DNA of 7,406 nt. Source: a virus (Duplodnaviria > Heunggongvirae > Uroviricota > Caudoviricetes). The notes beneath the pieces are model-generated. The model saw only the letters and a program-made list of their open reading frames with translations. It ran no database searches and was not told the DNA's origin. This document shows, one piece after another, positions 4,333-6,959 of this stretch (position 1 is its first letter; every line of letters starts with the position of its first letter). The position numbers and the translations under genes are program-made. The stretch lies in IMG/VR virus record IMGVR_UViG_2751185958_000013; one strand, 5' to 3'.

Positions 4333-6959
4333 ATGAGCGACCTTGCGAGAGAAATTACACCGGTCAACATTGAGGAAGAGCTGAAGAGCTCCTATCTGGA
4401 TTATGCGATGTCGGTCATTGTTGGCCGTGCGCTGCCAGATGTCCGAGATGGCCTGAAGCCGGTACACCGTCGCGTACTTTACGCCATGAACGTACTAGGC
4501 AATGACTGGAACAAAGCCTATAAAAAATCTGCCCGTGTCGTTGGTGACGTAATCGGTAAATACCATCCCCATGGTGACTTGGCGGTTTATGACACGATCG
4601 TCCGTATGGCGCAGCCATTCTCGCTGCGTTACATGCTGGTAGACGGTCAGGGTAACTTCGGTTCCATCGACGGCGACTCTGCGGCGGCAATGCGTTATAC
4701 GGAAATCCGTCTGGCGAAAATTGCCCATGAACTGATGGCCGATCTCGAAAAAGAGACGGTCGATTTCGTTGATAACTATGACGGCACGGAAAAAATTCCC
4801 GACGTCATGCCAACCAAAATTCCTAACCTGCTGGTGAACGGTTCTTCCGGTATCGCCGTAGGTATGGCAACCAACATCCCGCCGCACAACCTGACGGAAG
4901 TCATCAACGGTTGTCTGGCGTATATCGATGATGAAGACATCAGCATTGAAGGGCTGATGGAACACATCCCGGGGCCGGACTTCCCGACGGCGGCAATCAT
5001 TAACGGTCGTCGCGGTATTGAAGAAGCTTACCGTACCGGTCGCGGCAAGGTGTATATCCGCGCTCGCGCAGAAGTGGAAGTTGACGCCAAAACCGGTCGT
5101 GAAACCATTATCGTCCACGAAATTCCGTATCAGGTAAACAAAGCGCGCCTGATCGAGAAGATTGCGGAACTGATAAAAGAAAAACGCGTGGAAGGCATCA
5201 GCGCGCTGCGTGACGAGTCTGACAAAGACGGTATGCGCATCGTGATTGAAGTGAAACGCGATGCGGTCGGTGAAGTTGTGCTCAACAACCTCTACTCCCA
5301 GACCCAGTTGCAGGTTTCTTTCGGTATCAACATGGTGGCATTGCACCATGGTCAGCCGAAGATCATGAACCTGAAAGACATCATCGCGGCGTTTGTTCGT
5401 CACCGCCGTGAAGTGGTGACCCGTCGTACTATTTTCGAACTGCGTAAAGCTCGCGATCGTGCTCATATCCTTGAAGCATTAGCCGTGGCGCTGGCGAACA
5501 TCGACCCGATCATCGAACTGATCCGTCATGCGCCGACGCCTGCAGAAGCGAAAACTGCGCTGGTTGCTAATCCGTGGCAGCTGGGCAACGTTGCGCGATG
5601 CTCGAACGTGCTGGCGACGATGCTGCGCGTCCGGAATGGCTGGAGCCAGAGTTCGGCGTGCGTGATGGTCTGTACTACCTGACCGAACAGCAAGCTCAGG
5701 CGATTCTGGATCTGCGTTTGCAGAAACTGACCGGCCTTGAGCACGAAAAACTGCTCGACGAATACAAAGAGCTGCTGGATCAGATCGCGGAACTGTTGCG
5801 TATTCTTGGTAGCGCCGATCGTTTGATGGAAGTGATCCGTGAAGAGCTGGAGCTGGTTCGTGAACAGTTCGGTGACAAACGTCGTACTGAAATCACCGCC
5901 AACAGCGCAGACATCAACCTGGAAGATCTGATCACTCAGGAAGATGTGGTAGTGACGCTCTCTCACCAGGGCTACGTTAAGTATCAGCCGCTTTCTGAAT
6001 ACGAAGCGCAGCGTCGTGGCGGGAAAGGTAAATCTGCCGCACGTATTAAAGAAGAAGACTTTATCGACCGACTGCTGGTGGCGAACACTCACGACCATAT
6101 TCTGTGCTTCTCCAGCCGTGGTCGCGTCTATTCGATGAAAGTTTATCAGTTGCCGGAAGCCACTCGTGGCGCGCGCGGTCGTCCGATCGTCAACCTGCTG
6201 CCGCTGGAGCAGGACGAACGTATCACTGCGATCCTGCCAGTGACCGAGTTTGAAGAAGGCGTGAAAGTCTTCATGGCGACCGCTAACGGTACCGTGAAGA
6301 AAACTGTCCTCACCGAGTTCAACCGTCTGCGTACCGCCGGTAAAGTGGCGATCAAACTGGTTGACGGCGATGAGCTGATCGGCGTTGACCTGACCAGCGG
6401 CGAAGACGAAGTAATGCTGTTCTCCGCTGAAGGTAAAGTGGTGCGCTTTAAAGAGTCTTCTGTCCGTGCGATGGGCTGCAACACCACCGGTGTTCGCGGT
6501 ATTCGCTTAGGTGAAGGCGATAAAGTCGTCTCTCTGATCGTGCCTCGTGGCGATGGCGCAATCCTCACCGCAACGCAAAACGGTTACGGTAAACGTACCG
6601 CAGTGGCGGAATACCCAACCAAGTCGCGTGCGACGAAAGGGGTTATCTCCATCAAGGTTACCGAACGTAACGGTTTAGTTGTTGGCGCGGTACAGGTAGA
6701 TGACTGCGACCAGATCATGATGATCACCGATGCCGGTACGCTGGTACGTACTCGCGTTTCAGAAATCAGCATCGTGGGCCGTAACACCCAGGGCGTGATC
6801 CTCATCCGTACTGCGGAAGATGAAAACGTAGTGGGTCTGCAACGTGTTGCTGAACCGGTTGACGAGGAAGATCTCGATACCATCGACGGCAGTGCCGCGG
6901 AAGGGGACGATGAAATCGCTCCGGAAGTGGACGTTGACGACGAGCCAGAAGAAGAATAA
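4333..6959 (+). CDS. gyrA: DNA gyrase subunit A; S83L allele (codon 83 = TTG at 4579-4581); reading frame as given is interrupted by a 1-nt deletion near 5594-5596
   Basis: Translation from 4333 ([53 protein letters not shown]...) is GyrA and includes the active-site Tyr in [11 protein letters not shown] (TAT at 4696-4698). Frame 1 matches GyrA through ...[10 protein letters not shown] (to about 5595); frame 3 continues from about 5595 with [25 protein letters not shown]... to ...DVDDEPEEE and TAA at 6957-6959. Both halves together give 875 codons if one base is restored. Confidence 0.92.

Follow-up and report, generated by a model that had tools for sequence, protein, structure and literature searches.

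The 7,406-nt stretch of DNA analysed here (the window) carries the classical target-site gyrA Ser83Leu allele in a Shigella boydii-type chromosome, with a 1-nt deletion at codon 421 that breaks the reading frame as written and is most likely an assembly error. [quoted passage not shown] The sequence-only reading from which we started had recognised this genotype, and every element of its call stood; what it had overlooked is the frame break in the same gene.

The gene for DNA gyrase subunit A (gyrA) lies on the plus strand at 4333..6959, begins with the ATG at 4333, and measures 2627 nt against an expected 2628, being out of frame as written. In sequence searches it matched annotated E. coli gyrA over the full length (2628 nt) at 99.8% nucleotide identity, and a gyrA match was present in every complete E. 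coli genome searched (5426/5426). Both the full-length similarity and the conserved chromosomal context (ubiG divergent from gyrA as in K-12, then yfaL) agree with orthology to E. coli b2231, and the Pfam content comprises PF00521 and PF03989. A structure-sequence search aligned residues 1-420 of the product with residues 1-420 of the solved E. coli GyrA (3NUH), with mismatches limited to Ser83 to Leu and Val281 to Ile. The gyrA promoter and 5' region are the same as in the E. coli reference: the whole of 2994-4579 (the end of yfaL, ubiG, the ubiG-gyrA intergenic region, and gyrA up to codon 83) is identical to that reference (L001), and thus nothing points to an altered promoter alongside S83L. 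An extended -10-like motif (TGTTATAAT) was noted at 4281-4289, upstream of gyrA.

Counted from the ATG, codon 83 falls at 4579..4581 on the plus strand (4333+82*3 = 4579) and reads TTG (Leu), within the context CAT CCC CAT GGT GAC TTG GCG GTT TAT GAC ACG. Alignment with K-12 MG1655 gyrA (b2231) and with the best E. coli match located the sole difference in this codon at its second position, where a C>T change at 4580 converts TCG (Ser) into TTG. The three-way alignment (window, K-12 MG1655 gyrA and closest E. coli match) held no indel before gene position 1262; thus, the codon numbering is in register with that of E. coli, and the offset that had been raised as a possible objection is absent, the one-to-one correspondence with 3NUH likewise placing the leucine at residue 83. 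Within the QRDR, whose limits we take to be codons 67-106 (4531..4650, plus strand), codon 83 is the only non-synonymous change with respect to K-12, the remaining differences being synonymous third-position changes in codons 85, 91 and 100. Codon 87 (4591..4593, plus strand) is wild type, as had been claimed, reading GAC (Asp) both directly and in the K-12 alignment, and the second change that belongs to a high-level fluoroquinolone-resistance genotype is thereby missing; within gyrA, the description as a single-mutation QRDR holds.

That the wild-type E. coli codon is TCG (Ser), as the sequence-only reading had stated, is borne out by K-12 and by the 34-nt context with TCG at codon 83, which was found in 3069 of the 5426 complete E. 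coli genomes. The same context with TTG occurred in 2305 of the 5426 (~42%), with 2301 of these 2305 being exact. S83L is among the most frequent known resistance polymorphisms, and the change in the window is entirely ordinary and already known in every respect. Set beside the S83L allele of E. coli and Shigella (TCG to TTG), it affects the same gene and the same codon by the same base change within the same flanks, without any difference in the QRDR; what the window copy adds is the V281I background and the private 1-nt deletion at codon 421. For S. boydii, S. sonnei and S. flexneri, published work describes this allele as a single mutation accompanied by resistance to nalidixic acid (PMC10763507, PMC7367718).

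The lineage to which the window belongs was delimited by both protein and locus. The repaired-frame GyrA (875 aa), looked up by exact sequence in public data, had its S83L+V281I form on 21 public contigs named Shigella boydii, and a Ser83 protein on the same Ile281 background, otherwise identical, was found on 20 contigs labelled S. boydii or Shigella. The chromosome is of Shigella boydii type, and its species name rests on the labels of these exact GyrA proteins, the accession numbers of the related loci having turned up nothing in the literature. Ten same-lineage loci (L024-L033) were retrieved by means of the lineage-specific 663-aa yfaL fragment; all of them (10/10) share exactly the IS1-yfaL'-ubiG-gyrA-IS3 architecture, with an identity to the window of at least 99.93%. 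Codon 83 is TCG in eight of the ten, including L030 and L032, which carry D87Y (TAC). The other two read TTG: L029 (GCA_001905945.1), an independent short contig with the Ile281 background of the window, and L026, where S83L is joined by D87N (AAC) on a Val281 background. Over ~6.9 kb, the only substitution that separates L031 and L033 from the window is the one at 4580.

Since eight of the ten loci have TCG, and no substitution other than that at 4580 distinguishes L031 and L033 from the window, Leu83 is a derived, selected and recently acquired change that replaced the ancestral serine within this lineage, and not the lineage wild type. The presence of D87Y (L030, L032) and of S83L+D87N on Val281 (L026) further indicates that QRDR changes arose several times in the lineage (S83L, D87Y and S83L+D87N), a pattern of repeated drug selection on the QRDR inside one lineage. 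Codon 281 (5173..5175, plus strand) reads ATA (Ile) where K-12 has GTA (Val); the V281I context was found in none of the 5426 complete E. coli genomes and is common to L028, L029, L031, L032 and L033, and is thus a sub-lineage marker. V281I is not known to play a role in resistance. The junction between the gyrA 3' flank and the IS3-family element had no match in the GTDB representative genomes; hence, none of the species representatives belongs to the lineage.

The surroundings of gyrA combine intact and decayed genes. On the minus strand, ubiG (3464..4186) is intact, with no difference from the E. coli reference L001. The AIDA-I family autotransporter gene yfaL (301..3336, plus strand) is a pseudogene by comparison with the E. 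coli reference: IS1 has taken the place of its 5' part at 300/301, in-frame TAG codons stand at 772-774 and 2806-2808, and a T is inserted (+1) at 744, the yfaL fragments being the same in all ten relatives. The right end of the IS1 element fills 1..300 (plus strand), and the left end of an IS3-family element, including the start of orfA, lies downstream of gyrA at 7079..7406 (plus strand), where it replaces the start of yfaA; presumably, this element is IS911-like. In the relatives, all that is left of yfaA (DUF2138) after the IS3 element is a 130-aa remnant, and IS66-family genes come next. Such an IS bracket, together with the gene decay, is typical of a Shigella-style IS expansion.

As written, gyrA falls into two ORFs in different frames (4333-5682, 449 aa, and 5574-6959). 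The break is due to a 1-nt deletion at 5593..5594 (plus strand), located by K-12 alignment, which turns GCCGCG into GCGCG at codon 421; the shifted N-terminal ORF of 449 aa, of which approximately the last 28 residues are aberrant, runs into a premature stop at 5680..5682 (plus strand). PF00521 is broken at profile position 374 of 432, with positions 1-374 in the 449-aa ORF and positions 375-432 in the second ORF together with PF03989, so that the whole C-terminal beta-pinwheel domain is detached. Instead of sharing one polypeptide, PF00521 and the six PF03989 blades are thus spread over two frames, and the complete PF00521 + PF03989 architecture is regained upon repair of the frame; most likely, the split reflects a sequence error and not biology. 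No compensating indel is present, and the exact 449-aa truncated product has no match on record. Programmed frameshifting and reinitiation were considered as ways around the deletion and rejected: a slippery motif is lacking, neither GTG 5574 nor ATG 5598 is preceded by a Shine-Dalgarno-like sequence, and the upstream ORF ends ~85 nt past ATG 5598, the candidate restart, which makes translational coupling unlikely.

The deletion junction was encountered in none of the 5426 complete E. coli genomes and in none of the ten same-lineage loci, and in the comparison with these ten relatives no other difference is private to the window. An intact version of the exact allele exists in the lineage, as L029 is base-for-base identical to the window over 7020 nt apart from this deletion. 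Given that gyrA is an essential gene and that the deletion is missing from both the relatives and the E. coli genomes, we infer with high confidence that it is an error of assembly or sequencing, the true gene probably being an intact gyrA of 875 codons. Were the frameshift real, gyrA would have to be regarded as split or as a pseudogene and Ser83Leu as part of a non-functional remnant, and the cell would need either another copy of gyrA or assembly of the two fragments in trans to survive; the result would be a viable Shigella whose gyrA is split at codon 421, within the breakage-reunion domain. We consider such an outcome improbable, even if the deletion does stand in the sequence as given, the lineage is full of pseudogenes and IS elements (the broken yfaL, the IS1 and IS3-family flanks), and duplicated or plasmid-borne gyrA does exist, albeit very rarely (at most two places per genome and one plasmid place across the 5426 E. 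coli genomes). Beyond essentiality and the absence of the deletion elsewhere, what speaks against it is that the break falls inside the PF00521 breakage-reunion domain and not at a domain boundary, that neither restart codon has a Shine-Dalgarno-like sequence, and that there is no further decay, gyrA being in all else identical to that of L029.

The assembly error that we favour resembles the frameshifts seen in essential genes of long-read or otherwise noisy assemblies, being likewise a single-base deletion in a gene that otherwise matches its intact relatives. It differs from them in that the window has one indel in 7.4 kb and not many, and in that the deleted base lies within a CC dinucleotide and not in a long homopolymer; long-read errors are more typical of other contexts than this dinucleotide. 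In other public assemblies with a broken gyrA, what is called instead of the gene is a C-terminal fragment of 453 aa together with a spurious 323-aa ORF in antisense orientation. Look-ups of these two products led to cut contigs or to noisy E. coli assemblies with yfaA downstream, none of them with the codon-421 deletion. The antisense 323-aa ORF is also present in the window, within gyrA on the minus strand (4495-5466), and has no Pfam match; in noisy frameshifted assemblies (e.g., CP050193, CP050215 and several metagenome scaffolds) it is called where the N-terminal half of gyrA should stand. It has the look of an annotation artefact.

Two further readings concern the leucine codon itself. 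The probability that the T at 4580 was miscalled, the assembly being of low quality, is in our judgement very small; the presence of a probable indel error in the same gene lends it some credit, but the same T, together with Ile281, recurs in the independent contig L029, and the exact S83L+V281I protein is on 21 contigs. Moreover, consensus errors are mainly indels, and it is very improbable that a second-base change would by chance have turned codon 83 into the canonical TTG. Smaller still, and practically negligible, is the probability that Leu83 is the natural wild type or a neutral polymorphism of the lineage, a possibility that had been named at the outset as fatal to the call and for which no support was found. 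It is contradicted by TCG in eight of the ten relatives, by the otherwise identical Ser83/Ile281 protein on 20 contigs (S. boydii or Shigella), by the SNP at 4580 being the only substitution with respect to L031 and L033, and by the independent D87Y and S83L+D87N alleles, which point to drug selection.

The resistance phenotype of the Ser83Leu allele is taken from the literature, as opposed to the genotype, its numbering, the derived status of Leu83, the recurrence of QRDR changes and the private deletion, which the analysis shows. In a Lebanese collection, isolates with gyrA S83L as the single change (including six S. boydii 20) had nalidixic-acid MICs >16 mg/L, all of them being resistant, and ciprofloxacin MICs of 0.06-0.5 mg/L (PMC10763507). 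In a Chinese series, S83L together with parC S80I corresponded to intermediate susceptibility, and only resistant isolates carried D87N (PMC7367718). In E. coli gyrase, the keto-acid of the quinolone chelates Mg2+, whose waters form hydrogen bonds with Ser83 and Asp87; the commonest quinolone-resistance changes are S83L with D87N/Y, and the bulkier leucine breaks this water-metal ion bridge (PMC9917921).

We thus picture the allele of the window along established lines. In a chromosome of Shigella boydii type, one C>T transition gave rise to gyrA Ser83Leu. According to the accepted model (the water-metal ion bridge), Ser83 and Asp87 form hydrogen bonds with two waters of the quinolone-chelated Mg2+; with Leu83, one anchor is lost and bulk added, and the drug no longer stabilises the cleavage complex efficiently. 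The expected outcome would be nalidixic-acid resistance with reduced, but not clinical-level, ciprofloxacin susceptibility, the effect on ciprofloxacin being expected to stop at reduced susceptibility because codon 87 is wild type. This prediction presumes that the codon-421 deletion is an assembly error, as the sequence as written encodes no functional GyrA. Compared with fluoroquinolone-resistant Shigella and E. coli (gyrA S83L + D87N/Y, parC S80I), the window has the first-step S83L in common; it differs from such double or triple QRDR genotypes in its wild-type codon 87, with parC lying beyond the window, and its relative L026 already has D87N.

The case offers nothing new on gyrase or on resistance. 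Its practical value is that of a quality-control flag on the gyrA frameshift: with gyrA out of frame, automated pipelines would either overlook the resistance allele or list an essential gene among the pseudogenes. The S83L call has a routine value for surveillance, since it predicts nalidixic-acid resistance and marks the first step to fluoroquinolone resistance.
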